A DNA stretch of 64,000 nt, from NCBI GenBank assembly GCA_965228895.1, contig OZ245842.1:416001-480000 (forward strand), written 5' to 3'. The notes under the pieces are model-generated. The model was given only the letters and a program-made list of their open reading frames with translations. It was not told the DNA's origin and made no database searches. Positions 11,145 through 50,567 of this stretch are shown here, piece after piece. The stretch's first letter is position 1; the number at the start of each line of letters is the position of its first letter. Both the position numbers and the translations under genes were made by a program. The stretch comes from Alphaproteobacteria bacterium. Its GTDB lineage: Bacteria > Pseudomonadota > Alphaproteobacteria > SP197.

Positions 11145-11172
11145 TGTTTCCATAATGCAGATTATGGCGCCG
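11145..11172. other. dif-like (XerC/XerD-type) recombination site 1
   Basis: TGTTTCCATAA-TGCAGA-TTATGGCGCCG: 11+6+11 layout with the CATAA/TTATG inner dyad of dif; intergenic. Confidence 0.7.
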
Positions 11173-11405
11173 TGGTGTGTAAGCGCAGAATTAAGACGTC
11201 AGTCCTGAGCAAAGCTAAGATGATGGTGCTCCCTCCCGTTGGCAGGGACTGATGGGGAATAGTGCCGACCGCGACTTTGGTGCCCTTGAGCACTCGCCGC
11301 TGAATCGTACAAAAGCTTGGGGCAATGCCGATCGCCAATCGCAGAAGCGGCGACTAATCCCGCAAGCGATCTTGTCATGCGACTTTCCTCGACAATCATG
11401 CAATT

Positions 11406-11424
11406 TGTGAATTAAATATTCACA
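11406..11424. promoter_or_regulatory. Palindromic operator TGTGAAT-N5-ATTCACA (candidate IclR site)
   Basis: TGTGAATTAAATATTCACA about 30 nt upstream of the DUF35 gene; same dyad at 13039. Confidence 0.65.
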
Positions 11425-11455
11425 CGTTGAGTTGATGTCGGGCTCAGGAGGGCAG

Positions 11456-11863
11456 ATGGTCGGGTTGGCGCGGAACGGCCCTGAGGAAAAATTCAAGGCC
11501 TATCTCCGAGAAGGACAGTTCCTGGTCCAGAGGTCCCGACGGTCCGGGCGCATCGTCTTCTATCCACGTGTGGCGGCGCCGGAGACCGGCGAACGTGATC
11601 TCGAATGGACCCCATGCACCGGGTTCGGCACCGTTTACTCGACGACTGTGGTGCGCCGCCGCGCCGAAAAGGGCGGTGATTACAACGTCGCGCTGATCGA
11701 CCTCGATGACGGTTTCCGCATGTTGAGCCGCGTCGAGGCGGTCCCGCCTTCGGAGGTCCAAATCGGCCAGCGCGTGCGGGCGCGGATCGCTGAGATTGAT
11801 GGCGAGCCCGCGATCGTTTTCGATCCGCTGGATGGCGCTGAGGGAGATGATCATGCGCGGTGA
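11456..11863 (+). CDS. DUF35-family OB-fold protein (acyl-CoA-binding partner of thiolase-fold enzymes)
   Basis: FYPR...W...GTVYSTTVV...YNVALIDLDDGFRMLSRV...IGQRV; zinc-ribbon cysteines not evident; AGGAGG RBS. Confidence 0.88.
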   Translation: MVGLARNGPEEKFKAYLREGQFLVQRSRRSGRIVFYPRVAAPETGERDLEWTPCTGFGTVYSTTVVRRRAEKGGDYNVALIDLDDGFRMLSRVEAVPPSEVQIGQRVRARIAEIDGEPAIVFDPLDGAEGDDHAR

Positions 11864-12992
11864 GGCGGCGATTGTCGGCGTGGGGGTTGCCGGCCTTGGC
11901 GAAGCGCCCGGCCAAAGTGCGATGGAGATTCTTGCTGGCGCTGCTCTGGCTGCCCTCGATGACGCCGGGCTCCGGCCGTCCGACGTCGACGGGCTTTTTG
12001 TCAGCACCACGGCGCATTTCATGCCGACGGCGAGTGCCGCCGAGTATCTCGGCATTCGGCCGCGCTACTCCGATACCAACATGACAGGCGGATCCTCGTT
12101 CGTGGCTCATTTGCTGACCGCGGCGATGGCGCTATCGACCGGGGCCTGTGATGTGGCACTGATCGCTTATGGCAGCAACCAGCGCACATCACTGGGCCGA
12201 TTGCAGATGAACAACGAGCCGTTGCCCCTCGAAACCATATATGGACCGCGCTATCCCATCAGCGGCTACGCGATGATGGCGGCGCGTCACATGCACGAGT
12301 ACGGCACGACCCGCGAGCAACTTGCCGAAGTCGCGGTTGCCGCTCGCGGCTGGGCTGCTCTCAACCCGGAGGCCTTTTGTCGCGATCCGCTGAGCGTCGA
12401 CCAGGTGCTTGAGTCACGCATGATCTCCGATCCGCTGACGCTGTTGGATTGTTGTCTGGTCACCGATGGCGGGGGAGCCCTGGTCCTGGTCCGACGCGAA
12501 CGCGCCGCGGATTTGACGGGCTCTCCAATCCACCTGCTGGGGGCCGGGCTGGCTCACGAGCACCGGCAGATGTCGCAAATGCCCGACCTGACGTCGACGC
12601 TTGCCCGCGATTCAGGCGCGCGCGCCTTCGCCATGGCGCGCTTGGACCGAAGTGAGATCGATCTGCTGCAGCTCTACGACGGCTTCACCATCAACACGAT
12701 CATGTTTCTTGAAGACTTGGGTTTCTGCCCAAAGGGTGAGGGTGGCGGTTTTGTCAGTGGCGGGCGGATTGCGCCAGGCGGCGAGGTCGCGCTCAACACC
12801 AATGGCGGCGGGCTCTCGTGCACCCATCCCGGCATGTACGGCATCTTTCTTATCGTTGAGGCAGTTCGTCAGCTGCGCGGTGTGGCTGGTGAGCGCCAAG
12901 TGAACGACCTTGAAACCGCGCTCGTTCACGGTGTCGGCGGCATGATGTCGACCCACGTGACCGCCGTCCTCGGTACCGACGCCACCATCTGA
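11847..12992 (+). CDS. SCP-x/Ltp2-type thiolase-fold protein
   Basis: AIVGVG, DCCLVTDGGGA, LYDGFT, LEDLGFC, NTNGGGLS, EAVRQLRG; GGSSF at the usual nucleophilic Cys position. Confidence 0.9.
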   Translation: MIMRGEAAIVGVGVAGLGEAPGQSAMEILAGAALAALDDAGLRPSDVDGLFVSTTAHFMPTASAAEYLGIRPRYSDTNMTGGSSFVAHLLTAAMALSTGACDVALIAYGSNQRTSLGRLQMNNEPLPLETIYGPRYPISGYAMMAARHMHEYGTTREQLAEVAVAARGWAALNPEAFCRDPLSVDQVLESRMISDPLTLLDCCLVTDGGGALVLVRRERAADLTGSPIHLLGAGLAHEHRQMSQMPDLTSTLARDSGARAFAMARLDRSEIDLLQLYDGFTINTIMFLEDLGFCPKGEGGGFVSGGRIAPGGEVALNTNGGGLSCTHPGMYGIFLIVEAVRQLRGVAGERQVNDLETALVHGVGGMMSTHVTAVLGTDATI

Positions 12993-13038
12993 CGCCGGCC
13001 AACGTTTGTGACCAGGTGCCTTGCCATATGTCAAAAGA

Positions 13039-13057
13039 TGTGAATATTATATTCACA
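13039..13057. promoter_or_regulatory. Palindromic operator TGTGAAT-N5-ATTCACA (candidate IclR site)
   Basis: TGTGAATATTATATTCACA 20 nt upstream of the binding-protein ATG. Confidence 0.65.
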
Positions 13058-13077
13058 CTTAGCTTTGGGAGGCTGCC

Positions 13078-14679
13078 ATGAAAGACCGTGACGTCATTTT
13101 GAACGCGTTCAAATCCGCCAAATTGTCGCGCCGCGATGCGGGAGCTGCGCTCATGGGTGCGGGCCTAAGCGCCGTGGCTGCCGGGTCGCTGATCGAACGG
13201 GCTATAGGCGAGGCGGTGGCTCAGGAGCCGAAAACAGGCGGGACGTTGCGCGTCGCATCGACGGATTCCCACGCGGGCGACACCATCGACCCGGCGAAGA
13301 TCATTCAGAATATCGACATCATCCGCTCGGGCATCATCTATGAGACGCTCGTCGACTACGTGCCCGGGACCGGCCTTGTGCCCTCGCTCGCGACCTCGTG
13401 GGAGTCGAACAACGACGCCACCGAATGGCGCTTCGTGTTGCGGGACGGCGTCGAGTTCCACAACGGTAAGACAATGACGGCCAGCGACGTCGTTGCCTCG
13501 TTCAACCGTCACCTCGATCCCGACATTGCATCCCCGGCGAACGCCTATCTGGGAGACGTCGAGTCCTTCGCCGCCGACGGCGACGGCACACTCGTTGTGC
13601 GCATGAAGCAGCCCAACGCGGACATCCCTTACCTGTTTTCAGAGTATCACTTCACGGCGCAGCCCGAAGGCGACAACGATTACACAACGGGGGCGGTAGG
13701 AACCGGCGCCTGGCAGCTTCAGGACTTCGAGCCCGGTATCGTCGCAACATTTGTGCGCAATCCGAACTACTGGAAGAGCGGGTTGCCCTACATCGACGAG
13801 ATCGAAACCTTCGGCATCCCGGACAACGCTTCGCGGGTTAACGCGCTGCTTGCCGGTGAAGCCGATATGATCGTGCAGCTCGACCCCCAGCTCATCGGCT
13901 CCGTCGAAGCTGACGCGAACGGTCGCGTCCTAAGCCAGCCCGGCGGCGCGCATCCGACCTATCCCATGTTGGCAAACACGGCGCCCTACAGTGACAACAA
14001 CGTGCGCCTTGCGCTGAAGCATGCGGTCGACAGGGAACGTATGCTGGAGCTTGCGTTCGGTGGCTTCGGCGTCGTCGGACGCGATCATCCGATACCGCAG
14101 CACGACCCCTTCTTCGCGGCGGACGTCGAGCCGCTCGCGCATGATCCCGACAAGGTCGCCTACTACCTCAAGCAGGCGGGCATGGAAGGCGCCAGCTTCG
14201 AGCTCGTTGCCTCCGACGCCAACTTCGGTGGCGCCAATGCCAGCGTCGTCATGGCGGAGTTGATGAACGAGTCGGGCGCGAACGTCACCGTCAAGAAGGT
14301 GCCGTCGGACGGCTACTGGAGCGCGATCTGGATGCAGGCCCCGTGGTGCGGATCGTCGTGGTATGGACGACCCACCGCTGACCTCATGCTCTCCATCGCC
14401 TACATCACGGGTGGCGCGTGGAACGAGAGCTTCTGGTCGAACGAGAAGTTCGACAGTCTCGTGCTCGAGGCCCGCAAGGCGACCGACACGGCCCTGCGGA
14501 CAGAACTCTACCGAGAGTGCCAGATCCTGATGCGCGACGAAGGCTCCACCGTTACGCCCGTCTTCACGAATTGGATGGATGGTTACTCCGCGCGCGTGCG
14601 CAACTTCAACGGCCACCCTTATGGATTCCTTGGCTGGATGAAGTGGAGCGAAGTCTGGCTCGCCGACGCTTCAGCCTAG
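13078..14679 (+). CDS. Peptide/nickel-family (family 5) ABC substrate-binding protein, Tat-exported
   Basis: SRRDAG twin-arginine leader; LATSWE...LRDGVEFHNGK...DVVASF; GTGAW; RNPNYW; VRLALKHAVDR. Confidence 0.92.
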   Translation: MKDRDVILNAFKSAKLSRRDAGAALMGAGLSAVAAGSLIERAIGEAVAQEPKTGGTLRVASTDSHAGDTIDPAKIIQNIDIIRSGIIYETLVDYVPGTGLVPSLATSWESNNDATEWRFVLRDGVEFHNGKTMTASDVVASFNRHLDPDIASPANAYLGDVESFAADGDGTLVVRMKQPNADIPYLFSEYHFTAQPEGDNDYTTGAVGTGAWQLQDFEPGIVATFVRNPNYWKSGLPYIDEIETFGIPDNASRVNALLAGEADMIVQLDPQLIGSVEADANGRVLSQPGGAHPTYPMLANTAPYSDNNVRLALKHAVDRERMLELAFGGFGVVGRDHPIPQHDPFFAADVEPLAHDPDKVAYYLKQAGMEGASFELVASDANFGGANASVVMAELMNESGANVTVKKVPSDGYWSAIWMQAPWCGSSWYGRPTADLMLSIAYITGGAWNESFWSNEKFDSLVLEARKATDTALRTELYRECQILMRDEGSTVTPVFTNWMDGYSARVRNFNGHPYGFLGWMKWSEVWLADASA

Positions 14680-14730
14680 CTTGCGTGTACGCGTCATCAC
14701 CCAAAGATCACCGGTACTGAGGAGAGTGTT

Positions 14731-15534
14731 TTGGAGAACAAGTTCATCGTAAAGAAGGACGAACAGATCGCATGGATCATCTTCGACAGACCGCAGAAGC
14801 TGAACGCCATGCGCAGCGAGGGGTGGCGCGAGTTTGGCCGTCTCCTGTCGGAGCTCTGCGACGACCGAACGCTGCGATGCCTGATTATTGCGGGCGAGGG
14901 CAAGGCGTTCCAGGCCGGCCATGACATCGGACAGATGCTCGAGCACATCGAGGACATGAAGACCGGCGCGTACACGGTTGCCGACCTGCACGAGGGCCAG
15001 AAGGCGCTACAAGAGACAACACGCCTGATCCGCAAGGCCCGATTTCCCGTTATTGCCGCGGTACACGGCTTCGCCGTCGGCGGCGGATGCGAGGTCACGC
15101 TGGCGTGTGATCTCGTCGTCGCCGGCAAATCCACGCAGATGGGATTCCCTGAGGCCAAGGTCGGGGCGACCATTACCAATGGCGGCACTTGGTTGCTGCC
15201 GCGCAAGGTGGGGCTCGCCAAGGCTCGCGAGCTCGCCTTCATGGGTGAGATCGTCGACGCCGAGGAGGCGCTGAAAATCGGCCTCGTCAACCGAGTCGTA
15301 CCCGACGACGATGTGCGGACAGAGGCCGAAAGTATGGCCCGGAAGATCTGCACGATGTCACCGATGTCGGTCCAGTTGCATAAGACCATGCTCGATCGTG
15401 GCCAGGATGCCTCGCTCGAGACCATGCTGAACTTCGAGACTGAATGCCTCGTCGTTGCCTCGATCATGAAGGACCACGTCGAGGGCGTGCACGCGTTCCA
15501 CGAGCGGCGCGATCCCGTCTTCAACGGCGACTGA
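14731..15534 (+). CDS. Enoyl-CoA hydratase/isomerase (crotonase)
   Basis: DRPQKLNAM, FQAGHDI, AVGGGCE...ACD, FPEAKVG (both catalytic Glu present); TTG start after GAGGAG. Confidence 0.93.
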   Translation: MENKFIVKKDEQIAWIIFDRPQKLNAMRSEGWREFGRLLSELCDDRTLRCLIIAGEGKAFQAGHDIGQMLEHIEDMKTGAYTVADLHEGQKALQETTRLIRKARFPVIAAVHGFAVGGGCEVTLACDLVVAGKSTQMGFPEAKVGATITNGGTWLLPRKVGLAKARELAFMGEIVDAEEALKIGLVNRVVPDDDVRTEAESMARKICTMSPMSVQLHKTMLDRGQDASLETMLNFETECLVVASIMKDHVEGVHAFHERRDPVFNGD

Positions 15535-15547
15535 GCGCCTGACGCCC

Positions 15548-17158
15548 ATGTTTCTCGATCCACGAGAGCGCCACACGGTTTGCCAGGTCATGGCCGATCG
15601 TGCCCGGCGGCAGGGCGACCGCCCCTTTCTCCTCGGTGAGGAGGGGACGGTCAGCTATCTCGCGTTCGAGGAACGGGCGGTTGCCATGGCGCAGGGACTC
15701 ACGGCGCTGGGCGTTAAGCCGGGCGACACGGTCCTCGTCATGCTTCCGAACGTCATGGGGTTCGTCGTGCTGTGGGCCGCGCTGGCGCGCATTGGTGCGA
15801 TCCAGGTGCCGGTCAACACGGCCTACCGTGGCGGCATCCTTGAGCACATCATGAGCGACTCACAGGCGGCCTTTATGGTGGCCGACACCGAGTACCTGGA
15901 GCAGGTCGGCGAAGCGGCGGCCAAATGCCGCGCCCTCCGCCATGTCATCGTACACGACGGTGACGGCGCCGGCCTTCCGGCGAATCTCGCCACCAGCCAA
16001 TTCGAGGCACTTGAAACGCGTGAGGCCGAGCTGCCGGACCCACCGCGCCCGCGCGATCTGATCGGTGTCATGTACACGTCAGGCACCACGGGCCCATCGA
16101 AGGGTGCGATGATCACCCACGCCCACGCTTATGTTTACGCCCACAACGGCCACGACCGCATGAAGCTTGTGCCTGAGGACGTCTACTTCGCGCCGCTACC
16201 GTTGTTCCACATCGCGGGACAATGGGCGGTGGTTTACGCGGCGATGATCTGCGGTTCTGCGGCGGTCATCACCCGGCGTTTCAGTGTCACCACATTCTGG
16301 CGCGATGCCGTGCGATTCCGCGCCACGGCTGCGTTTCTTCTTGGTGCGATGGCAAACTTTCTGCATCGCCAGTCGCCCGGCGACCATGAGCGCGAGAGCA
16401 GGATCGACCGTATGCTCGTGGTCCCGCTCTTCCCGGAGGTCACCGACTTCGGGAGGCGCCTTGGTGTCCGCGTGGTGACGACCTACGGCTCGACCGAGGT
16501 CAACTCGCCCATGATCGCGTCCTTCGACGCGCCGGACTGGCGCAGCTGTGGGCGGATGAAGGATGACCTCTTCGAGGCCCGCATTGTCGACGATGAGGAC
16601 GAGGAGGTGCCGCACGGTACGGTGGGTGAGCTTGTTGTGCGCCCGCGCCTTCCCTGGATCGTGATGGCGGGCTACTGGGGTCATCCGGACTGGACCGCGG
16701 ATGCTTGGCGCAACCTTTGGCTCCACAGCGGTGATGCCATGTATCGCGACGAAGCGGGCAACTTCTACTTCGTCGACCGCAAAAAGGACGCCATACGACG
16801 GCGCGGCGAGAACATCTCGTCGGTCGAGGTCGAAAACGAGATCAACGCCCATCCCGACGTGCTCGAGAGCGCCGTTTTTGCCGCCTCGTCCGAGCACACC
16901 GAGGACGAGGTCATGGCGGCCGTCGTGGTGAAGCCGGGCGTCGCACTTTGCCCGGAGGCGCTAATCCATTTCCTCGAGCCGCGCATGGCCTACTTCATGG
17001 TGCCGCGCTACCTGGAGATCGTCACGGAGCTGCCGAAGACGCCAACCGGCAAGATCCGCAAGGTCGACCTTCGGCGCCGTGGCCCCACCGCCGCGACCTG
17101 GGACCGTGAACACGCCAAAGTCCCGCTGCGGCAGCTCGACAAGAGGAGGGAACGATGA
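15548..17158 (+). CDS. Acyl-CoA ligase (crotonobetaine/carnitine-CoA ligase-like)
   Basis: YTSGTTGPSKG, YGSTE, WLHSGD, DRKKDAIRRRGENISS, PKTPTGKI. Confidence 0.93.
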   Translation: MFLDPRERHTVCQVMADRARRQGDRPFLLGEEGTVSYLAFEERAVAMAQGLTALGVKPGDTVLVMLPNVMGFVVLWAALARIGAIQVPVNTAYRGGILEHIMSDSQAAFMVADTEYLEQVGEAAAKCRALRHVIVHDGDGAGLPANLATSQFEALETREAELPDPPRPRDLIGVMYTSGTTGPSKGAMITHAHAYVYAHNGHDRMKLVPEDVYFAPLPLFHIAGQWAVVYAAMICGSAAVITRRFSVTTFWRDAVRFRATAAFLLGAMANFLHRQSPGDHERESRIDRMLVVPLFPEVTDFGRRLGVRVVTTYGSTEVNSPMIASFDAPDWRSCGRMKDDLFEARIVDDEDEEVPHGTVGELVVRPRLPWIVMAGYWGHPDWTADAWRNLWLHSGDAMYRDEAGNFYFVDRKKDAIRRRGENISSVEVENEINAHPDVLESAVFAASSEHTEDEVMAAVVVKPGVALCPEALIHFLEPRMAYFMVPRYLEIVTELPKTPTGKIRKVDLRRRGPTAATWDREHAKVPLRQLDKRRER

Positions 17159-18024
17159 CCAGCGAACGCCGCCTGACCGATGCGGAGATCGCCGCGTTCG
17201 AAACCGACGGATTTCTCAAGATCGAGGGCTTCTTCGGTCTTGGCGAGCTTGCGCCGCTGCAAGACTCTCTTAAGGAGGATCCGACCGTCGGTGGTCGTTT
17301 CTTCACCGTGCATGACGGTGATGGCGTCGGCACCCACGACTACATGAGTTGGAGCCGCCACGAGGATGACTATGTCGGCACGGCGACCCGGCTAGCCCGG
17401 GTCGTCCACGCCGCAGAAGACCTGATCGGCGAGCCGGTCTATCACTACCATTCCAAGATGGTGCGCAAACCACCGAGAAGCCCCGGCAAGGTCGACTGGC
17501 ACCAGGATTATGGTGGCTGGTACCAGGAAGGCTGTCTGTTTGCGAAAATGCTGACCTGCGCCGTGGCGGTCACGCGCGCGCCGGCAGAGGCCGGTTGCCT
17601 GCGCATGTTACGGGGTTCTCACACCATGGGGCGCATCGACTGGATCAGCGACGAGACGTCCTATTACACGCTCTACCGACCGCGGCTCGAGGCAATCCTT
17701 GAGCGCTTCGAGCTGGTTGAGCTGGAGATGGAGCCGGGTGACGGACTCTTTTTCCACCCCAATGTTCTCCATACGTCAGCGCCCAACGTGACGAACGCGC
17801 CGCGGACGCTGATGGAGTTCTCCTTTAACGCGCACGCCAACGCGCCGGTGTTCGAGGGCCAGGCTCATCACCAGCCGAAGGCGCTCGTCATCGCCGATGA
17901 CGATGCCCTGGCGGCGGGCCGTTTCGACGGCGTCTTCGGACGTACGCCACTTCACGACATCGACAATCCGAGCGACGAGGGCTACCGCATCTTCCATCGC
18001 GAAGACCTGCCCTCGAAGTCGTGA
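17155..18024 (+). CDS. Fe(II)/2-oxoglutarate dioxygenase, PhyH family
   Basis: WHQD (HxD), GSH, LHTSAPN, distal Arg; ATGA overlap with the ligase. Confidence 0.9.
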   Translation: MTSERRLTDAEIAAFETDGFLKIEGFFGLGELAPLQDSLKEDPTVGGRFFTVHDGDGVGTHDYMSWSRHEDDYVGTATRLARVVHAAEDLIGEPVYHYHSKMVRKPPRSPGKVDWHQDYGGWYQEGCLFAKMLTCAVAVTRAPAEAGCLRMLRGSHTMGRIDWISDETSYYTLYRPRLEAILERFELVELEMEPGDGLFFHPNVLHTSAPNVTNAPRTLMEFSFNAHANAPVFEGQAHHQPKALVIADDDALAAGRFDGVFGRTPLHDIDNPSDEGYRIFHREDLPSKS

Positions 18025-18038
18025 CCGGAGGTGAAGCC

Positions 18039-18929
18039 ATGACCGAACCCGTGATCGAACGTCTGACCGCCCAAGCCTCGGCCGACGGCATTGCCGATGT
18101 CGTGCTGCGTGACGGTTGCGTCATCATCGAGCGGCTGCTCGAGGAGAGTTTCGTCGACCGCATACTCGAGGAGCTGTCGCCCTGGCTTGATCGCGTGCCG
18201 GAGGGCAGCGGCGACTGGGTTGGCTTCCGGACCCGCCGTCTGCATGGGTTGACGCCGAAATCGGCGGCAATCCGTGAGAACATCTGCAACCCGTTGGTCC
18301 TGGGCGTGATGGAGCGGCTGCTGGGGCCGTGGTGCGACACCTTCCAGCTCAGCTCCTGCTCGACCACAGCAATCGGGCCTGGCGAAAAAGCGCAGGAACT
18401 GCATCGCGACGACCTGATGTTTCCGTTTGAGCATCCGTCGGCGCGCATCCCTTATTGCACCACGTTCTGGGCGCTGTCCGACTTCACCGAGGAGAATGGC
18501 GCGACCCACATGATCCCCGGTAGCCATCGCTGGGACGACGAGCGGATCCCGCGTCACGAGGAGACGGCACGCGCGGTGATGCCGAAGGGTTCGGTGATAA
18601 TCTACACCGGTGCGGTGTGGCACGGCGGCGGCGCCAACGTGACCCGAGACGGGTGGCGCAGCGCGCTCTTCACCAGCTATTCGGTCGGCTGGCTGAAGCA
18701 GGAGGAGGCCCAGTATCTGGTCAATCCGCCGGACATCGCGCGTCACTATCCCGAACGGCTGCAGCGGCTTGTCGGCTATCAAATGCACAACCCGTTTCTC
18801 GGTTGGTACGACCTCCAGGATCCGATCGAGGTTTTGCGCGGCTACGAAGAACTCTCCGCGCCCAACCGTGATCTCTTCGCTGAGGGCGAGACGCGTAGTG
18901 TCATCAGCCGCGACGTGAAGCGCGCGTGA
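18039..18929 (+). CDS. Fe(II)/2-oxoglutarate dioxygenase, PhyH family
   Basis: QELHRDD, DFTEENGATHMIPGSHRW, WHGGGAN, WR; WLKQEE. Confidence 0.92.
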   Translation: MTEPVIERLTAQASADGIADVVLRDGCVIIERLLEESFVDRILEELSPWLDRVPEGSGDWVGFRTRRLHGLTPKSAAIRENICNPLVLGVMERLLGPWCDTFQLSSCSTTAIGPGEKAQELHRDDLMFPFEHPSARIPYCTTFWALSDFTEENGATHMIPGSHRWDDERIPRHEETARAVMPKGSVIIYTGAVWHGGGANVTRDGWRSALFTSYSVGWLKQEEAQYLVNPPDIARHYPERLQRLVGYQMHNPFLGWYDLQDPIEVLRGYEELSAPNRDLFAEGETRSVISRDVKRA

Positions 18930-18957
18930 AGCAGCCCCCGAAACCGGAGACCTCGCC

Positions 18958-19809: not shown

Positions 19810-19877
19810 CCGGATGAGATTGATGCAGAGTTTCATGGAGATGTTGTTGACTAAGAATAGTCGCGCCGAGGTGTTTC

Positions 19878-42264: not shown

Positions 42265-42266
42265 CG

Positions 42267-43420: not shown

Positions 43421-44373
43421 CGCTGTTTCACCCGGTTAAGGAACTTGACGTAGAGATTGCCGGCCCCGAACACCGTGACAAACAGGATGATGGCAAAGGC
43501 CGAGCTATAGCCGGTTCGCCATTTCTCGAAGGCTTCTCGCTTCAGGTTGATCGACGCCAGTTCCGTCACCGACCCGGGCCCGCCCGACGTCAGCTCCACG
43601 ACGAGGTCGAACATCTTGAAGTTCTCAATGCCCCGGAACAAGACGGCAAGCATCAAGAAGGGCAGGACCATCGGTACGGTGATGGTCCAGAACTGACGCC
43701 AACGCGAGGCCCGGTCGACCTCAGCCGCTTCATAGATATAGTCGGGGATCGACCGCAACCCGGCCAGGCAGATCAGCATCACGTAAGGCGTCCACATCCA
43801 GGTGTCGACCAGAACGATGGCCCAGGGCGCCAGGTTGACATCGCCGATCATGGTGAAGCTGCCGGCGTCGATGAAGAAATTGACGATGTAGTTAAAGATG
43901 CCGGACTGGGGCTGGAAGATATAGGTCCAGAAAACGCCAACGACCGCAGGCGACAGCATCATCGGAAGCAGGATCAGCGTCGTCCAGGTTGCATGACCCT
44001 TGAAGCGGCGGTTGATCAACAGAGCGAGGCCGAATCCGAGGACCACCTGACAGACCATGGTCCAGGTAACGAAGTGCGCGGTCGCCTGCATGTAGCCCCA
44101 GACGTCCTCGCTGCCGAGCAGCCTTTCGTAGTTGCGAAAGCCGACCCACTCGATCTCGCGGCCCGGCTGGTTCGCCCGGTAGTTGGTGAAACTGAGGTAG
44201 ATCGCCCACAGCAGCGGAAAGATGTTGATCGCCAGAAGCAGGCCGATGGTCGGCAGAATAAAAACCCAGGCCAGGGCCCTGTCGCCCATCCCACGCACAC
44301 GGATGCCACGCCCGGGAAGCGTTGCTGTCGCTGCTGTTGTGGTCGTGCTCTGGGACATGTGGGATTGAGCCAT
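43417..44373 (-). CDS. Carbohydrate ABC permease (MalF-like)
   Basis: YEAAEVDRAS EAA loop; WMWTPY; GGPG. Confidence 0.93.
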   Translation of the reverse strand: MAQSHMSQSTTTTAATATLPGRGIRVRGMGDRALAWVFILPTIGLLLAINIFPLLWAIYLSFTNYRANQPGREIEWVGFRNYERLLGSEDVWGYMQATAHFVTWTMVCQVVLGFGLALLINRRFKGHATWTTLILLPMMLSPAVVGVFWTYIFQPQSGIFNYIVNFFIDAGSFTMIGDVNLAPWAIVLVDTWMWTPYVMLICLAGLRSIPDYIYEAAEVDRASRWRQFWTITVPMVLPFLMLAVLFRGIENFKMFDLVVELTSGGPGSVTELASINLKREAFEKWRTGYSSAFAIILFVTVFGAGNLYVKFLNRVKQR

Positions 44374-44466
44374 CTGCTGGCTTGGATACTAAAGGGATCA
44401 AAAAAATATGGTCGACCGGACCGGAGACGTGGTCCGGCCGACCAGGTTGGTTGCGACGGCGGGAGA

Positions 44467-45792
44467 CTAAATCTTACCGTCGTCTTCGAACACTTCGGTC
44501 CAGTCATCAACGAGCTTGTCGAGCGCTTCCTGGGCCGTACCTTGATCGGCCACGACATAGTCGTGAACCCGCTTCTGCATGGATTGCAGCAATTCGGCGT
44601 ATGTTGGTTCTTGCCAGAAATCCTGTACGCTACTCATGGCCACCAGGAAGTCGGAAGCGAACGGCGCGCTGCCGGCAAAGCTGGGGTCTTCGAGCACCGA
44701 CAGACGGCATGAGTAACCGCCAAGGGACCACCACTTCTGCTGCACTTCCGGCTTGGCAAACCACTTGATGTACTCAAGCGCCATGTCCTGTTTGTCGGAA
44801 TAGGCGACGACGGAGATCCCCTGTCCGCCGAGCGTTGACGCCTCGACGTTCTGGGCGGGATTGACGAAGAAACCCGACTTGTCACCGCCGACATCTTCGT
44901 CCTTGGCGATACCGGGGAAGAAAGCGAACCAATTCATCTGCATCGCCACCTGGCCGGACTTGTAGGCGTCCAGATTGGCAACCATGTAGGCGTCGGAATG
45001 CCCCGGAGGTGTGCAGCACTCATAGAGTTCCTTGTAGAACGACAGGGCTTCGACAGCGGCCGGGCCATTGACATAACCGCCCATATCATAGGGCCGCTCG
45101 GGATTGTCGTACTCCATGCCCCAGGCATACATCGCCGACGTCACGCCCATGGTAATGCCTTCGGAACCGCGTTCGGTGTAAAGACCCATGCCGTAGACGG
45201 TCTTGCCGTCGATCTCGCGGCCCTGGAAGAACTTGCCGATATCCATCAGCTGGTTCCAGTTCGCCGGCGGCGCGAGGTCATAGCCATACTCGCTCTTGAA
45301 GGCTTCCTGAAGCTCGGGCCGCTCGAACCAGTCCTTGCGGTAGACCCAGCCCAGCGCGTCGCCCATGGCCGGCAGCGCCCAATAGCTCGGCTCGCCCTTT
45401 GGCCATGTCGAATAGGCGTACACCGTGGCCGGCAGGAAGTCGTCCATCGAGATATCGTTCTCGACAAAGAAATCGGTGAGCTCGATGTAGTGACCATAGG
45501 TGGCCGAACCGCCGAGCCACTGGCTGTCACCAATCAACAGATCGCAGAGCTTACCGCCCGAGTTCAATTCGTTCAGAAAGCGATCCGCGAAGTTCGTCCA
45601 CGGAACAAACTCGAACTTCATGGCGATGCCCGACTCGGCCGTAAAGTCTTTCGACAGTTCAGCCAGCGCGTTGGCCGGATCCCAGGCCGCCCAACATAAC
45701 GTCAGTTCTTGATCCTGTGCCTGGGCCGTCGTGCCGCCCATGAGACCGGCCGCGACCGCGGCGGCAGCACAGATTTGTGCCAGTTTTCGCAT
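44467..45792 (-). CDS. Carbohydrate/polyol ABC substrate-binding protein
   Basis: Signal peptide (AQAQ); GDSQW; FKSEYGYDLAPP; LGGQG; GGAGG RBS. Confidence 0.92.
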   Translation of the reverse strand: MRKLAQICAAAAVAAGLMGGTTAQAQDQELTLCWAAWDPANALAELSKDFTAESGIAMKFEFVPWTNFADRFLNELNSGGKLCDLLIGDSQWLGGSATYGHYIELTDFFVENDISMDDFLPATVYAYSTWPKGEPSYWALPAMGDALGWVYRKDWFERPELQEAFKSEYGYDLAPPANWNQLMDIGKFFQGREIDGKTVYGMGLYTERGSEGITMGVTSAMYAWGMEYDNPERPYDMGGYVNGPAAVEALSFYKELYECCTPPGHSDAYMVANLDAYKSGQVAMQMNWFAFFPGIAKDEDVGGDKSGFFVNPAQNVEASTLGGQGISVVAYSDKQDMALEYIKWFAKPEVQQKWWSLGGYSCRLSVLEDPSFAGSAPFASDFLVAMSSVQDFWQEPTYAELLQSMQKRVHDYVVADQGTAQEALDKLVDDWTEVFEDDGKI

Positions 45793-45887
45793 TGCTTCAC
45801 CTCCCAAATTCTGAGTTCGCGTTGCGTCGATGTTGGTGCCGACCGACAGCCGGTCGGATAAGACCACCCCACGTATTCTTGCTCTTG

Positions 45888-45917
45888 GTTTAGTTTATTG
45901 TTTTGACTAAACTAAAC
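45888..45917. promoter_or_regulatory. Perfect inverted repeat GTTTAGTTTA-N10-TAAACTAAAC in the divergent promoter
   Basis: AT-rich dyad between the binding-protein and amidohydrolase starts. Confidence 0.7.
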
Positions 45918-46010
45918 TTCTGTCAAGCGCGATCTATCTGCTGCAGCGCACCAAATCGATGTTGCAGCGCAACAAACCGAGCGAATCAAAGCAACGTGGA
46001 GGACGTCGTG

Positions 46011-47291
46011 ATGTCGGGAACATTCATTCATAACGCCAGGATCATTGATGCCAGCGGCGACGAGCCGTTCTTGGGATCGGTCCAGATCCGCGGCAACCGT
46101 ATCGCCGCGATCCACCACGGCATCGAAGGCAAAGCCGGCGCCGGCGACAAGTCAATCGACGCCGGTGGCGCCACACTGATGCCCGGCCTGATCGAGGCGC
46201 ACGCGCATATCTCGTTCTGCGATACACCGACCCTGGAAGACCTCGGCGACATCCCGCCGGAAGAGCACACGCTCGAGACCATGAAGTTCGCGCGCAAGAT
46301 GCTGGATCAGGGTTTCACTTCGTTGTTCAGCGCGGCGGCGGCCAAACCCCGCCTGGATGTCGTCATCCGCAATGCGATCGAAGCCGGTGACATTCCGGGG
46401 CCGCGCATGCGTGCGGCCAGCCCTGAGCTGACGGTCACCGGCGGGCTGGGTGATGTCAGGCGCCGTCACATTCATCGCGAGACCTTCGCGATCTGCTGCG
46501 ACGGCGTCGACGAGTTTCGCCGCACCGCGCGCGAGATGTGCCGCGAGGGCGTCGATACCTTGAAGATCAATCCGTCGGGCGACGAGTTCATCCCGTTCGC
46601 CCGGGCGCACTTGACCGTCATGAACGAAGACGAGATCGCCGCCGTGTGCGAGGTCGGCAAGTCGCGCGGCAAAATGGTCGCGGTCCACGCCCGGTCGGCG
46701 CTCAGCGTCAAGCTTTGCCTGAAGCACGGCGCCGATGTGATTTACCACGCCAGCCTCAGTGACGACGAAGCGCTCGATATGCTGGAAGCACATAAGGACG
46801 AGATCTTCGTCGCCCCAGCAATGGGCATTATGTTCGCGACGTCGCAGGGTGAGGGCGCGGCCTGGGGGCTGACCAAGGACAGCGACGTCGCCATGCATTT
46901 CGCCCGCGAACTCGAGCGCTGCGTCGAGAACATGAAAGAACTCGCCAAGCGCGGCGTGCGCATCCTGCCGGGCGGCGATTACGGCTTTGCCTGGAACCCC
47001 ATCGGCACCAATGCCCGCGATCTCGAACACTTCGTCAACCTGCTCGACTTTACACCGATGCAGGCGATCCAGTCATGCTGTGCCCATGGCGGCGCGTTGA
47101 TGGGATTGCCTGGAGAGCTGGGCCAGATTCGCGAGAGCTGGCTCGCCGATCTCGTCCTGATTGACGGCGATCCGCTGAAGGACATCCGGCTTCTACAGGA
47201 CGCCGACAAGTTCTTGGGCATCATGAAGGACGGGAAGTTCCACAAAGATCCCTCGATCGCCGCGACACGGTCCACTGAGGTCGCCGCATAG
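46011..47291 (+). CDS. Metal-dependent amidohydrolase (prolidase-like subgroup)
   Basis: MPGLIEAHAH (HxH), LKI, VAVHA, IYHA, GGDYG, ADLVLIDGDPL. Confidence 0.9.
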   Translation: MSGTFIHNARIIDASGDEPFLGSVQIRGNRIAAIHHGIEGKAGAGDKSIDAGGATLMPGLIEAHAHISFCDTPTLEDLGDIPPEEHTLETMKFARKMLDQGFTSLFSAAAAKPRLDVVIRNAIEAGDIPGPRMRAASPELTVTGGLGDVRRRHIHRETFAICCDGVDEFRRTAREMCREGVDTLKINPSGDEFIPFARAHLTVMNEDEIAAVCEVGKSRGKMVAVHARSALSVKLCLKHGADVIYHASLSDDEALDMLEAHKDEIFVAPAMGIMFATSQGEGAAWGLTKDSDVAMHFARELERCVENMKELAKRGVRILPGGDYGFAWNPIGTNARDLEHFVNLLDFTPMQAIQSCCAHGGALMGLPGELGQIRESWLADLVLIDGDPLKDIRLLQDADKFLGIMKDGKFHKDPSIAATRSTEVAA

Positions 47292-47344
47292 CGTCGCACC
47301 AACGGGCAACGCCGATCGATGACTAGGCTGGGCCGTTACGCTTT

Positions 47345-47536
47345 CTCGAGCCAATGCGTCCGGCCCGTTCCCTGTTCATACGCGTAGGGAAGTTGTTTCT
47401 AAGTCACCGGTTCGGGTCAGTTATGTGGTAGCTCAGCGTGTGAAGAGTGACTGATCTGGCAGAAGTTCCCTGCATTCTCCCTGTTAACAGCGAAGTTCGG
47501 CAGAGACGGGTTCGCAGCAGACTGCCCGCACCACCA
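47345..47536 (+). repeat. Copy 2 of the composite direct repeat
   Basis: CTCGAGCCAATGCGTC (47345), TTCCCTG boxes, TCCCTGTTAACAGCGAA, and the 34-bp core at 47503-47536 identical to 35323-35356. Confidence 0.9.
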
Positions 47537-47563
47537 CTTGCTAGAATGCAGATTATGACGCCG
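47536..47563. other. dif-like recombination site 3 (left arm degenerate)
   Basis: ACTTGCTAGAA-TGCAGA-TTATGACGCCG; right arm differs by 1 nt from site 1. Confidence 0.6.
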
Positions 47564-47729
47564 ACAAGGCGTCTGCTTCATAGCTGGAAGCGGACATCCT
47601 GGGTTACTAGCGTTCAGATCCACTATTAACCCGAAGCGGCCATAAGTCAGGGGCCGGAACGATCGTCAAGGCGAGAGGCGCACCCATCTTCGATACGTAG
47701 AGGGAAGCAGGTTCGCTTGGCATGATCCT

Positions 47730-48266
47730 TCACTCCTCAACCCGGTTGTCGGGTGCAACTTTCGATGACGAAAATGACCAGCAGAAACTAATGACGACGC
47801 CGCAGGTAATCGCAGCATCGGCCAGATTAAAGGCTGGCCAGTGATACGTTCCAATGTAGAAATCCAAAAAGTCAGTTACGGCGCCATCCCAAATCCGATC
47901 CAACAGGTTACTGATCGCGCCGCCGAAGATGCAGGTGAGACCAAGTGCGAGCAGGGAACTCGATGTACGCCAAAGCCACGTGCCAACGAGTACGATCAGC
48001 ATTAGAGCAACCACGCCGAGGGCATAGGGCATAAGCGAGTGCTCAGTGCTCAGGAAGCCAAAACTGACGCCCCGATTGTAGTGCAGTACGAGATTGAAGA
48101 ATGTCGTGACCGCTATAGGCTGTGCAGAATCTTGTACGGTGCCTTCAGCGAACCACTTGGTGCCCAGATCGACCGCAACGATTCCAGCACTTAACGAGCC
48201 AGCCATCGTGAGACGCCGAAGCGTGCGGCGTCTTCCGAACCATGACGTGTGCACAACCGTCTTCAA
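47730..48266 (-). CDS. lspA: Lipoprotein signal peptidase II (accessory copy)
   Basis: DLGTK, NRGVSFG, GAISNLLDR, VTDF, WPAFNLAD. Confidence 0.93.
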   Translation of the reverse strand: MKTVVHTSWFGRRRTLRRLTMAGSLSAGIVAVDLGTKWFAEGTVQDSAQPIAVTTFFNLVLHYNRGVSFGFLSTEHSLMPYALGVVALMLIVLVGTWLWRTSSSLLALGLTCIFGGAISNLLDRIWDGAVTDFLDFYIGTYHWPAFNLADAAITCGVVISFCWSFSSSKVAPDNRVEE

Positions 48267-48275
48267 CGAAGACCG

Positions 48276-48614
48276 TTAATCACCGATCACCCGCCGCCGC
48301 TCCTCGAACTCGGCCTTGTCAATCTCACCGCGTGCATACCGCTCCTTCAGAACATCAAGGGCCGTCCTGCCCTGCGGGACATGCGGTGTGCCGCTGTGAC
48401 CAGCGCCACCGAGAAAGCGTACGATCAAGACGATCACGGCAACCGCCACGACCAAGATGATGATCATCATGAATGGACCCATGAACCATCCCGACCATCC
48501 GCCATGCCACATGTCCGGTCCATAAGGGCTGTTCTGGACCTGTTGTGACAGTGCGGGAGAGGTAACAAAGACAAAGCCAAGCACTGTGATAACCAAACGG
48601 ATTGGCGTTTTCAT
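48276..48614 (-). CDS. SHOCT-domain membrane protein
   Basis: Signal peptide, one TM helix, ALDVLKERYARGEIDKAEFEERR. Confidence 0.88.
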   Translation of the reverse strand: MKTPIRLVITVLGFVFVTSPALSQQVQNSPYGPDMWHGGWSGWFMGPFMMIIILVVAVAVIVLIVRFLGGAGHSGTPHVPQGRTALDVLKERYARGEIDKAEFEERRRVIGD

Positions 48615-48625
48615 TGGTGCAATCC

Positions 48626-49213
48626 TCATTGTTTCGTCGATTCACTGGGAGACCCGGCACGCATGTAGGTAACGATCGTCCAAATCTCGTCTGTGGTAAG
48701 ACCGTATTTGAACGCGGGCATGTCTGTTCCGAGCGCCTCACCACCACTAGAAATTGACCACAAGAGATACTCGTCAACAGCCATTGGCATTTGGATCATG
48801 TAGGCGAGCAGGGCCGGAGACGGGTTAAGTGAACGACCCGCTTCACCATCACCCATGCCCGATGCTCCATGACAGGAAGCGCAGTTCTCCGCATAGAGGG
48901 TGCGACCTGCATTGATCGTCATGGCATCCGGTGAAAGGGGGTTGCGGGCTTCACGATACTCAGCTGGGATGCCTTGATGCATGAAGGTCCAATGGCGCTC
49001 CATCCTCTGGTTCATGCCGGGACCCATCTGATCGGGCCCCCACATATCGCGCTGCATCCAAAAGGGGTCCCACATGTCCGAACAGCACGGGGGTGTTTGA
49101 GTGTCGGATGACTGAGCGGTGGCCTCGCTGAGATCAAATGGGGCAGCGACTGCAACAGCAAACGCAAGAACGCCGATTAAGACAAAACTAGATCTTGTTC
49201 TTCCTGCTTTCAT
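48626..49213 (-). CDS. Periplasmic monoheme cytochrome c
   Basis: Signal peptide; CASCHG; MPAF axial Met; Met-rich linker. Confidence 0.88.
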   Translation of the reverse strand: MKAGRTRSSFVLIGVLAFAVAVAAPFDLSEATAQSSDTQTPPCCSDMWDPFWMQRDMWGPDQMGPGMNQRMERHWTFMHQGIPAEYREARNPLSPDAMTINAGRTLYAENCASCHGASGMGDGEAGRSLNPSPALLAYMIQMPMAVDEYLLWSISSGGEALGTDMPAFKYGLTTDEIWTIVTYMRAGSPSESTKQ

Positions 49214-49233
49214 GGCCTCACTCCCGTAGTCGT

Positions 49234-49866
49234 CTACTCCGCCGGAACTTCATTGGCATGGCGCAACTCAAAGCGCGCATGGCGGACGATCTGGACGGAA
49301 GACCACAGGAACAAGCTCGCCATGATGCCGGCAACTGTCAGATCCGGCCACGCGGTATTGGTTACCCACACGCCACTTGCCGCAAGAACGACGGCCACGT
49401 TGCCGATGGCGTCATTGCGACTGCAAAGCCAGACGGAGCGAACATTAGAGTCGCCGTTCCGAAACTTGAGTAAGAGCAGGACACTGGTGAGATTGGCCGC
49501 TAATGCCAGGAATCCAACAACACCCATCACCTCTGCCTTCGGAAGGTCGAGAACAGCAACGTGATAGATCGTTGAACCCAACACCCACAGGCCCATTGCG
49601 CCAAGGGTTAGTCCCTTGAAGAGCGCAGCGCGGGCACGCCACACAAGCGGCATGCCAATGACAAACAGCGTAATTGCATAGGTCGCGGTGTCGCCCAGGA
49701 AGTCGAGTGCATCGGCCTTGAGGGCCTGCGAACCCGCGAAGACGCCCGCAGCAATCTCGGCCGCAAACATCGTCCCGTTAATGGCGATGACCACCCAGAG
49801 CACACGTTTGTACGACGCTGAGAGGCCGTCAAAACCCAATTCTTCACCGCAGCCGCAACCGGCCAT
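49234..49866 (-). CDS. Cation diffusion facilitator-like Co/Zn/Cd/Pb transporter (membrane domain only)
   Basis: SQALKADALDFLGD, SVWLCSRNDAIGN, WPD; N-terminal CGC. Confidence 0.88.
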   Translation of the reverse strand: MAGCGCGEELGFDGLSASYKRVLWVVIAINGTMFAAEIAAGVFAGSQALKADALDFLGDTATYAITLFVIGMPLVWRARAALFKGLTLGAMGLWVLGSTIYHVAVLDLPKAEVMGVVGFLALAANLTSVLLLLKFRNGDSNVRSVWLCSRNDAIGNVAVVLAASGVWVTNTAWPDLTVAGIMASLFLWSSVQIVRHARFELRHANEVPAE

Positions 49867-49917
49867 ACTGCCAGAATCCTTCTTGCCGTTTCGGAACCTT
49901 GTGTATCCGTCGTCAGC

Positions 49918-49948
49918 AATCTACGATCTATAGTAACTAGAGATTCAA
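49918..49948 (-). promoter_or_regulatory. MerR-type (PbrR/CadR-like) promoter/operator
   Basis: Minus strand TTGAAT-CTCTAGTTACTATAGATCG (19 bp)-TAGATT, with a dyad inside the 19-bp spacer. Confidence 0.85.
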
Positions 49949-49959
49949 GGCATAATTCG

Positions 49960-50412
49960 ATGGCAGCGACAGAGTTCACAATCGGCCACCTCGCCAGAGA
50001 AACTGGCTGTAAGGTCGCCACAATCCGTTACTACGAACAGATCGGTCTCATGCCAGCGCCCGGACGTTCGCCTGGCAATACACGGCTCTACGGCTCCGCT
50101 CACCTGGCCCGGCTCAACTTCGTTCAACACTGTCGGGATCTCGGGTTTTCGCAGGCCGTTATTCGAGAGCTCTTGGAGCTAACGGAACATCCAGACAGGT
50201 CCTGCGAGGCCGTCACCGAGATCGCTCAGACGCATCTCAACTCCGTGAACCAACGTATTGCCCGACTCGCGGCACTGAAAGGCGAACTTGAGCGCATGAT
50301 CAAGGCCTGCCGTGGAGGGCGAGTGGAGCATTGCCAGATCGTCGAGGCCCTGGCGGATAACTCACCGCTACGCGATCCTGCAGAAAATCAAGGAACGTCT
50401 CAGGCACACTGA
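49960..50412 (+). CDS. MerR-family divalent-metal regulator (CadR/PbrR/ZntR-like)
   Basis: TIGHLA...TIRYYEQIGL; three Cys (RSCEAV; ACRGGRVEHC). Confidence 0.92.
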   Translation: MAATEFTIGHLARETGCKVATIRYYEQIGLMPAPGRSPGNTRLYGSAHLARLNFVQHCRDLGFSQAVIRELLELTEHPDRSCEAVTEIAQTHLNSVNQRIARLAALKGELERMIKACRGGRVEHCQIVEALADNSPLRDPAENQGTSQAH

Positions 50413-50539
50413 GTCGGCTCACGGCCAAAAGCGAACATCTACGGAGCTAGGAACGACGTCGGCGTCAACGCTCAAAGCGGAAATCTCAGCGGTCGGATTT
50501 ACGACGACGCATTGTGAAAGAACACCGTAGCAATCCTGT

Positions 50540-50567
50540 GTTTCCCATAATGCAGATCACGCGACCA
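50540..50567. other. dif-like recombination site 4 (right arm degenerate)
   Basis: GTTTCCCATAA-TGCAGA-TCACGCGACCA; same spacer and orientation as sites 1-3. Confidence 0.58.

Follow-up and report, generated by a model that had tools for sequence, protein, structure and literature searches.

A stretch of 64,000 nucleotides (nt) from an alphaproteobacterial genome contains four co-oriented sites that resemble dif, each consisting of a XerD arm, a central region, and a XerC arm. This stretch, hereafter the window, is the whole DNA analyzed and corresponds to positions 416,001–480,000 within one contig of 5,528,408 bp and 62.4% GC (OZ245842.1). Comparison of the four sites with the rest of the genome and with related genomes suggests that they are junction scars in two tRNA-anchored islands of modules joined head to tail. 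These islands may have grown as modules were added serially, by site-specific recombination of the Xer type, to a landing pad anchored at a tRNA gene, a reading for which, judging from sequence comparison, we put the chances at about even.

Distribution and anatomy of the dif-like sites

The initial annotation had described four intergenic 28-bp sites of one orientation in the window. Their letters, strand, and spacings were all reproduced (start-to-start distances of 24,211, 12,180, and 3,004 bp; table 1), and none of the four overlaps an open reading frame (ORF) of at least 100 amino acids (aa) in a crude gene call. A 16-nt core with up to three mismatches was found four times in the window against 0.26 expected, and four occurrences were reached in none of 100 shuffles. 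No Rfam family reached its gathering score anywhere in the window; one meaningless match (E = 5.9) lies around site 2. What this description had missed is the extent of the array, which reaches far past the window (14 sites) and is accompanied by four sites in a second island.

A position-weight matrix (PWM) was built from the 18 array sites and scored genome-wide, with the reversed sequence as a control. Among 28 matches above 14 bits, 20 exceeded 31 bits, namely the 18 array sites and two dif-type sites near the terminus (2,268,576 and 2,598,514), and the next best match had 17.1 bits. The reversed sequence gave three matches with a maximum of 16.0 bits. Array 1 comprises 14 sites over 216 kb, all on the plus strand (345,425–561,838), and array 2 comprises four sites over 71 kb, all on the minus strand (4,224,334–4,295,107). 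All strong matches are thus confined to two islands plus the terminus and are not scattered over the genome, which answers a check that the initial annotation had proposed. In the crude gene call, 16 of the 18 array sites are clear of ORFs of at least 100 aa, and the other two overlap doubtful ORFs of 110–120 aa. The modules between array sites range from 1.2 to 44 kb, and the islands have a lower GC content (0.555–0.624 for the modules).

Both arrays lie downstream of a tRNA gene, array 1 of tRNA-Met (321,892–321,968, plus strand) and array 2 of tRNA-Ser(GGA) (4,310,749–4,310,838, minus strand). The order relative to the anchor is the same in both: tRNA, XerD arm, XerC arm. The first site lies 23.5 kb from tRNA-Met in this genome and 2 nt after the 3′ end of tRNA-Met in G002, a congener with 97% completeness. 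In the 70 kb downstream of the tRNA genes, no direct repeat of a tRNA 3′ end of at least 12 nt was found, except for one 12-mer near tRNA-Ser.

Cumulative GC skew placed the origin of replication at ~5.04 Mb and the terminus (skew maximum) at ~2.35 Mb. Written with the XerD arm first, the site at 2,268,576 is ATTTTCCATAA-TATATA-TTATGCGACTT. Of 24 family genomes, 20 have a single copy of its core TTTCCATAA-TATATA-TTATGCGA or of a variant with one mismatch, as do 27 of the 41 relatives searched, and on this pattern the site is taken as the host dif. The dif of G002 is identical to it over all 28 bp; none was found in the assembly of G430, a metagenome-assembled genome of the Hyphomicrobiales. 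A second full dif-type site, 330 kb away in the same orientation (2,598,514–2,598,541), has both arms of the canonical dif and the central region TGTAGC. G002 has the canonical dif only.

The array sites have the geometry of dif, with two inverted 11-bp arms around a 6-bp central region. The initial annotation had likened them to dif, and comparison with the host site at the GC-skew terminus bore this out: their left arm is the XerD arm of the host dif, with no mismatch in five sites, one in seven, two in four, three in one, and four in one. Information content is high at positions 1–22 and near zero at positions 23–28. The inner 5 bp of the XerC arm (TTATG) are intact in 13 of the 18 sites; over its full 11 bp this arm has two to six mismatches to the host dif per site, the outer 6 bp being unconstrained. 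Where the upstream element described below (element A) is missing, the outermost base of the 11-nt XerD arm is also the first conserved position. Fifteen of the 18 sites have TGCAGA as central region, and the host dif has TATATA. Single-copy sites with two dif-like arms and the spacer TGCAGA were found in Hyphomonadaceae, Hyphomicrobiaceae, and other genomes. By this comparison, TGCAGA is apparently also a natural central region of dif-like sites in other Alphaproteobacteria.

Within the window, site 1 differs from the host dif at two positions of the XerD arm and at none of the inner XerC arm. Site 3 has a decayed XerD arm (4 of 11 positions mismatched), and the orthologous site in G002 is intact. 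Site 4, the weakest of the four, has TCACG as inner XerC arm.

Table 1. Features of the window and large serine recombinases of the genome. Positions are those of the window unless marked as genome positions. Sites are written as XerD arm-central region-XerC arm.
Feature	Position	Strand	Remarks
dif-like site 1	11145..11172	+	TGTTTCCATAA-TGCAGA-TTATGGCGCCG; 40.3 bits; without element A
dif-like site 2	35356..35383	+	ATTTTCCATAA-TGCAGG-TTATGGGGCTC; 42.4 bits; XerD arm identical to that of host dif
dif-like site 3	47536..47563	+	ACTTGCTAGAA-TGCAGA-TTATGACGCCG; 33.0 bits
dif-like site 4	50540..50567	+	GTTTCCCATAA-TGCAGA-TCACGCGACCA; 31.5 bits; without element A
Proximal element A at site 2	35289..35355	+	Palindromic box pair TTCCCTGTTAACAGGGAA, then GAGACGGGTTCGCAGCAGACTGCCCGCACCACC; abuts XerD arm
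Element A at site 3	47361..47535	+	~175 nt; TTCCCTG boxes at about −168 and −70
Element B, putative left-end remnant of IS1202 type	11178..11222	+	TGT start 5 nt after XerC arm of site 1; no transposase left
Distal part of 24.5-kb module	1..11144		Module starts at genome site 402,640; site list, Pfam
M24 creatinase/prolidase-like gene	9275–10621	−	Pfam; near end of module before site 1
Cupin gene	10567–10974	−	Pfam; last in module before site 1
24.2-kb module	11173..35355		GC 0.619; mostly plus-strand operons; ORFs, Pfam
Thiolase-like gene	11796–12992		First gene of 24.2-kb module
12.2-kb module	35384..47535		Dak1, ABC transporter genes, amidohydrolase; Pfam, comparison with G002
Core of 3.0-kb module	47570..50499		LspA, cytochrome c, cation-efflux, MerR; Pfam
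Proximal part of 35.4-kb module	50568..64000		Module ends at genome site 501,917; includes 880-aa ORF (52482–55124)
Large serine recombinase, 598 aa	genome 322,271–324,067		300 nt from tRNA-Met
Large serine recombinase	genome, about 4,308.7–4,310.5 kb		~300 nt from 3′ end of tRNA-Ser(GGA)
Large serine recombinase	genome, about 875.7–877.7 kb		~300 nt from tRNA-Ser(CGA); no dif-like site nearby
Large serine recombinase	genome 4,292,693–4,294,255		0.85 kb from site 4,295,107; followed by RepB/ParB-like gene

Several of these features would also fit sites at which XerD binds for chromosome organization, for example in the unloading of SMC complexes, and which are not cassette junctions. The XerD arm is the best conserved part, the XerC arm is half degenerate, and the sites of both islands point the same way relative to replication. 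In Bacillus subtilis, XerD sites near the terminus have reportedly been found to unload SMC complexes. We nevertheless give this explanation only a very slight chance. The sites lie in low-GC variable islands 0.74–1.05 Mb from the origin and 1.7–2.0 Mb from dif, and not at the terminus; they were found in none of the 30 other genomes searched in the order; and they mark breaks of synteny. Their orientation is explained by the anchoring tRNA genes, since both arrays point with replication because of the way in which these genes are oriented.

Junctions in related genomes and flanking elements

Outside this genome, the sites were detected in G002 only among 40 relatives, and among 33 genomes of the order in none beyond this genome and G002. 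In 400 other genomes of the class, single hits occurred in two and arrays in none. A scan of a species collection returned 12 loci, four of which are in G430. All 11 PWM matches on the two array contigs of G002 are co-oriented, nine of the matches being above 20 bits. G430 has 11 sites, and the ten on its three multi-site contigs are co-oriented in the order XerD arm, XerC arm. In G002 and G430 the arrays are the same, but the cargo is different. For an empty-site comparison, the genus offered a third genome (G001), which was too fragmented and, at 69–73% identity, too divergent.

The 12.2-kb module of the window is kept between two sites in G002 at 84% identity. Its left neighbor in G002 is the module that lies at 383,035–399,780 in the present genome, indicating that the three modules which separate the pair here are absent in G002. 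Junction identities were computed over 250 nt. The left flank of G002 site 122293 had an identity of 0.67 to that of site 399,780 (0.58 to the alternative), and its right flank had an identity of 0.75 to that of site 451,356 (0.49 to the alternative). Between G002 site 110053 and site 463,536, identity was 0.71 on the left and 0.46 on the right. G430 site C106:435 was 92% identical to site 383,035, which has no element A, on the left up to the central region and 54% identical on the right. The initial annotation had proposed an alignment of related genomes, and in these three cross-genome junctions homology indeed switches inside the site. A fourth discordant junction, between site 402,640 and G430 C106:79979, was rejected: only ~30 nt to the right of the site are common to the two, and not the module.

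The behavior of the outer XerC arm agrees with these switches. It differs at none of its six positions where the right flanks are homologous and at three to five where they are not. The outer XerC arm thus follows the right-hand module, and the point of exchange must lie between this outer part and the XerD arm, where Xer enzymes cut. In addition, the homology families of the two flanks occur in free combination. Relative to the core, every alignment of left flanks stops at +15 to +23, and every alignment of right flanks starts at −7 to −4.

We also compared contigs of four public runs (X9, X10, X11, and X1) with window positions 33000–52900. Short contigs end at ~35342–35352 and at 47525, at the repeats, and joints were found in paralogous transporter genes and none from site to site; these data are contigs and not reads and are uninformative either way.

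A copy of the 3-kb module of the window, 95.5% identical, is present in the second island (genome 4,267,987–4,270,916) without flanking sites. The homology begins 7 nt past site 3 and stops 41 nt ahead of site 4. On this evidence the module is a discrete unit, but one that moves by other routes too. It abuts a 1,218-bp perfect inverted repeat (4,266,770–4,267,987 and 4,288,300–4,289,517), probably two copies of an insertion sequence (IS), which encloses ~20 kb starting with the copied LspA, cytochrome c, cation-efflux, and MerR genes.

On its XerD side, an array site is often preceded by a conserved sequence, which we named element A and which is present at 12 of the 18 sites. The earlier account of the flanks was incomplete in this respect, in that sites 2 and 3 have ~75–175 nt of further common sequence on their left and an IS end follows site 1. 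The full element is ~215 nt long, with weaker homology extending to ~300 nt upstream in the two longest copies. Its TTCCCTG boxes at about −213, −192, and −170 are phased by 21 nt and are followed by an inverted box near −150. Nearer the site are boxes at −74 and −63 and an inverted one at −52, the last two forming an 18-nt perfect palindrome. The element ends in a GC-rich stretch closing in CACCACC, which abuts the site. Clusters of at least three TTCCCTG boxes were found in element A only and nowhere else in the genome.

When the 3′ part of element A was compared with the 49 tRNAs, the best match was tRNA-Glu, and tRNA-Met ranked 13th; the best score was reached in 48 of 2,000 shuffles. This part appears weakly and nonspecifically tRNA-like. 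Variants of element A were observed at genome positions 501,917, 527,045, and 4,251,535 and at G002 C9:70967; in three of these, 17 nt are inserted ahead of the XerD arm. These variants contain a 12-mer that is equal, or nearly so, to the 3′ end of tRNA-Ser(GGA) plus the first six downstream bases. Such sequences hint that the left border of the site may copy the ends of the anchoring tRNAs.

Element A was not met in other contexts. No Rfam family, plasmid, or phage with the element was found, and element A plus site 3 had no BLASTN match among plasmids. The 18-nt palindrome was also tried as a marker: a metagenome scan yielded at least 120 loci, and no dif-like site lies downstream of any of those listed. 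By itself, the palindrome is therefore unspecific. A search of a viral collection gave a single match (L158, 14055–14074), a full dif-like site with TGCAGG on an AT-rich contig of unrelated composition.

The XerC side of some sites carries a different sequence, element B. In the window it follows site 1, and it is homologous to the right flanks of genome sites 345,425, 366,728, and 4,237,508. It is present at 4 of the 18 sites here and at 3 of 11 sites in G430, and in every copy (4/4 and 3/3, respectively) it lies exactly 5 nt from the XerC arm. The element starts with TGT in three of the four copies here (AGT in the other) and in all three of G430. Decayed reading frames were detected downstream of three copies, none of them within the window. 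Fragments of these frames matched rve_3 (28.7 bits, cut-off 26.5) and, below the cut-off, HTH_29 (19.9 bits), and a match to the ISNCY model NF033594 had 20.6 bits (cut-off 250; E = 6.6e-4).

Members of the IS1202 family are reported to begin with TGT, to end with ACA, and to target positions 5 bp from the XerC side of dif and pdif sites (Harmer, Pong, Hall, PMC10132070). The family is characterized there by insertion 3–5 bp from the XerC side in one orientation, inverted repeats of 24–26 bp, target-site duplications of 3–5 bp, and a transposase of 394–507 aa with N-terminal HTH domains and a DDE domain (PMC10132070). The same study notes that members from Rhizobium and Methylobacterium adjoin loose dif-like sites whose XerD arm starts with TTATGGAA (PMC10132070). 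The XerD arm of the array sites likewise starts with TTATGGAA. From these fragments, we read element B as putative remnants of an IS1202-type IS. Its position 5 nt from the XerC side provides an independent hint that the sites were recognized as dif-like in the cell, and IS1202-type homing to dif-like sites would thereby be extended to a further alphaproteobacterial lineage. As for the right end, a 9-nt inverted match ending in ACA was seen in local alignment for the 345,425 copy only; BLASTN-short detected no inverted copy of the B end and hence no right ends of the remnants. A target-site duplication was not found for the 345,425 copy: the 5 nt ahead of its left end differ from the 5 nt past the putative right end.

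Additional short right-flank elements, observed at genome site 402,640, at G430 C106:79979, and at G002 C4:110053 and 96077, are common to otherwise unrelated modules. One of them, of ~27 nt, begins 5–6 nt after the XerC arm and has a TGT start, an ACA end, and inverted termini; it is perhaps a miniature remnant of an IS of this type.

The repeated flanks raise a further question, namely whether the sites are simply a dispersed intergenic repeat, such as a nonautonomous element or an operator, with synteny broken nearby by homologous recombination or by chance. The core is an operator-like inverted repeat (CCATAAT-GCAG-ATTATGG), element A, at 70–300 nt and 72–94% identity between copies, could support homologous recombination, the sites have no sign of purifying selection (see below), and the element matched no Rfam family, plasmid, or phage. 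We consider this explanation very improbable, because the sites are confined to two islands and strictly co-oriented, and homology also switches at a site that lacks element A and has only ~22 bp in common. Moreover, the flank families combine freely and all end in the core, and a dispersed repeat would leave both the identity with the arm of the host dif and the IS1202-type targeting unexplained.

Recombinases and the proposed accretion of modules

To identify candidate enzymes, we searched for recombinase domains. Four PF00589 proteins are encoded in the genome and none in either array. One is XerD-like (323.6 bits to TIGR02225, cut-off 329.6; 366 bits to NF001399) and one XerC-like (318 bits to TIGR02224, cut-off 335), their scores being just under the equivalog cut-offs; by these profile matches, host XerC and XerD are apparently the only Xer-type enzymes of the genome. 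The other two are P4-type integrases with an Arm-DNA-bind_3 domain, located at their own loci. One P4-type integrase lies beside the second of two copies of tRNA-Thr(CGT), 15.5 kb apart (5,244,200 and 5,259,763), a region with the look of a classical tRNA-flanked island.

The initial annotation had reported no recombinase gene. This is correct for the window, in which neither a tyrosine nor a serine recombinase was found, and does not extend to the islands, since large serine recombinases head both arrays in this genome (table 1). An ortholog in G430 lies 13.7 kb from a site, as in array 2 here, and G002 keeps a remnant next to tRNA-Ser. The 23.5 kb next to tRNA-Met contain DUF2924, terminase, ParB-methylase, RES, and OLD-like ATPase genes and look like a phage-derived or defence island.

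We infer from the comparisons above a model with Xer catalysis, circular intermediates, insulation by the central region, and an accessory role of element A. A circular module with one site, usually with the ~215-nt element A on its XerD side, would meet a resident site, and strand exchange would occur in the central region. The integrated module would end up between two directly repeated hybrid sites; the DNA left of the resident site would stay with the XerD arm, and the outer XerC arm would move with the right-hand module. Repeated integration would produce an array, excision between direct repeats would be possible, and sites would decay once fixed. XerC and XerD of the host, supplied in trans, would most likely catalyze these steps. 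Exchange with the chromosomal dif would be prevented by the private central region TGCAGA, and element A could be an architectural or accessory arm, by analogy with cer and psi. Serial addition of modules by XerC/D had already been proposed in the initial annotation. The dif geometry, the clustering, and the switches inside the sites speak for the serial addition, catalysis by XerC and XerD is the presumptive part, and the tRNA anchors, element A, and the serine recombinases are new to the picture.

Several observations weigh against Xer-type accretion. Conservation does not extend to the outer 6 bp of the XerC arm, which makes XerC binding uncertain. All nine stronger sites of G002 (>20 bits) depart from the dif of G002 in the outer part of the XerD arm, in eight cases at position 2. 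The arrays are 1.7–2.0 Mb away from dif, and FtsK-dependent activation of XerD is not expected that far from it. The phased boxes of element A resemble the arm-type sites of integrases. An arm-binding domain is lacking in Xer proteins but is found, as Arm-DNA-bind_3, in two P4-type integrases encoded elsewhere in the genome. Large serine recombinases adjoin the anchoring tRNAs, one of them 0.85 kb from site 4,295,107, and the situation in G430 is similar. Sites are absent from the flanks of the second copy of the 3-kb module. Orthologous sites differ at 3–4 of 22 core positions, and their flanks are 84–92% identical; the cores thus change no more slowly than the flanks. Purifying selection is therefore not apparent, and the arrays may be relics without activity. 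The decay of older arms that the initial annotation had assumed agrees with this, orthologous sites having decayed in a lineage-specific manner. Finally, the support for Xer-type accretion comes from sequence comparison.

A stronger version of Xer-type accretion would be a capture platform without integrase that is still active, in which XerC/XerD and a protein bound to the TTCCCTG boxes move operon-sized modules independently of FtsK, with TGCAGA insulating the array from dif. We put this forward tentatively and think it more doubtful than probable. If true, it would represent an Xer-driven analog of integrons for whole metabolic operons in marine Alphaproteobacteria.

Some of the same observations would be accommodated if the arrays had been built by another recombinase and the likeness to dif were secondary. 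The enzymes could be the large serine recombinases, with accretion as in composite SCCmec islands, or a P4-type integrase acting in trans or since lost, with the TTCCCTG boxes as its arm-type sites. Three of the four large serine recombinases lie ~300 nt from tRNA genes, two head the arrays, and one is 0.85 kb from a site, in addition to the G430 ortholog and the G002 remnant mentioned above. The 21-nt spacing of the boxes, their inverted copies, the restriction of clusters of at least three boxes to element A, the two Arm-DNA-bind_3 proteins of the genome, the resemblance of the element A end to tRNA 3′ ends, and the location of the arrays at tRNA genes would also speak for another recombinase. 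However, G002 has 11 co-oriented sites and, at 97% completeness, no match to the Resolvase or Recombinase domain; its three tyrosine recombinases, the only ones detected, are not on the array contigs. Similarly, the three multi-site contigs of G430 (10 sites) encode neither a tyrosine nor a serine recombinase. On these grounds, the serine recombinases are regarded as probable parts of separate tRNA-targeting elements; their tRNA junctions have no dif-like site, and two of these junctions have a common 8-mer which is unrelated to dif. The P4-type integrases occupy their own loci, one between the two tRNA-Thr copies. Furthermore, the conserved unit is asymmetric and coincides exactly with three parts of the host dif (XerD arm, central region, inner XerC arm), which makes an unrelated att core very unlikely, and IS1202-type ends lie 5 bp from the XerC side. 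Taking both sides together, we consider another recombinase unlikely.

Should serial Xer-type accretion be correct, housekeeping Xer enzymes would also build islands of hundreds of kb at tRNA-anchored sites in environmental Alphaproteobacteria. It would be a recombinase-free route of island growth that is invisible to annotation pipelines, because there is no integrase gene to find. The 18, 11, and 11 sites of three genomes with different cargo would constitute a natural system in which to address how XerD-first, FtsK-independent recombination is licensed away from the terminus, what binds the accessory arm, and how the central region insulates the array from dif.

Relation to known systems and cargo of the window

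Phages, the gonococcal island, and small resistance modules on plasmids of Acinetobacter are known to take over Xer recombination. The class of integrative mobile elements exploiting Xer (IMEX) reportedly includes the CTX/TLC/VGJ phage arrays at dif1 of Vibrio cholerae and the gonococcal genetic island. The arrays share with IMEX the lack of a recombinase of their own (none in the window), direct dif-like repeats, the possibility of tandem accretion, and one degenerate arm. Unlike IMEX, which lie at the chromosomal dif in the terminus, the arrays are found at tRNA genes 1.7–2.0 Mb from the dif at 2,268,576 and have another central region. In place of the phage genomes of IMEX, they carry operons for metabolism, transport, and metal resistance, up to 44 kb long, and they have an accessory arm of ~215 nt.

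In cer and psi, accessory sequences on the XerC side bind PepA together with ArgR or ArcA, and recombination between direct repeats is independent of FtsK. The arrays are similar in that a Xer core is joined to accessory DNA (~180–200 bp in cer and psi), but element A is on the XerD side and its TTCCCTG boxes match no binding motif that we could name. Like integrons, the arrays represent a fixed platform gathering co-oriented cassettes, each with one site at its distal end. In contrast to integrons, no intI or other tyrosine recombinase is present at the platform (no PF00589 match at either array), the cores appear as double-stranded 28-bp dif-type sites and not as folded attC hairpins, and a cassette comprises entire operons, which lie in either orientation and include regulators. 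SCCmec likewise forms tandem cassettes at one locus with short direct repeats and a recombinase in some cassettes only, which could act in trans; here, however, the repeat has the geometry and arm identity of dif, and G002 has arrays with no serine recombinase match.

In Acinetobacter, the chromosome may contain multi-module "dif module islands" whose modules are bounded by inversely oriented sites (C/D, D/C) (PMC12907356). As in the pdif/dif modules of Acinetobacter, many dif-like sites beside the main dif partition the cargo, the XerD arm is the better conserved one, and an IS1202-family insertion lies 5 bp from the XerC side (PMC10132070). The Acinetobacter modules are mostly small, alternating in site orientation, and mostly plasmid-borne, whereas the sites here are direct, chromosomal, and tRNA-anchored, with modules of up to 44 kb in an alphaproteobacterium. 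The initial annotation had considered a metabolic cassette array of this kind undescribed in Alphaproteobacteria. In the full-text literature searched, no co-oriented dif-like arrays were described at tRNA genes or in Alphaproteobacteria, and to this extent the claim holds; the idea itself is not unprecedented, since the Acinetobacter islands are in print (PMC12907356).

The contents that the initial annotation had named for the modules were roughly right, Pfam matches including Dak1, amidohydrolase, LspA, cytochrome c, cation-efflux, MerR, and thiolase-like domains (table 1). Dak1 follows site 2, and the amidohydrolase precedes site 3. No conserved gene adjacent to the sites was detected in an all-against-all BLASTP comparison of crude island ORFs from this genome and G002, which returned cargo families only, for example, transporters, regulators, and dehydrogenases.

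In the 35.4-kb module, a 28-nt direct repeat (86% identity) with an internal inverted repeat was observed at window positions 51355–51382 and 52470–52497. The second copy lies just upstream of the 880-aa ORF and overlaps its start. The pair has a likeness, as we presume, to MerR-type promoter/operators.

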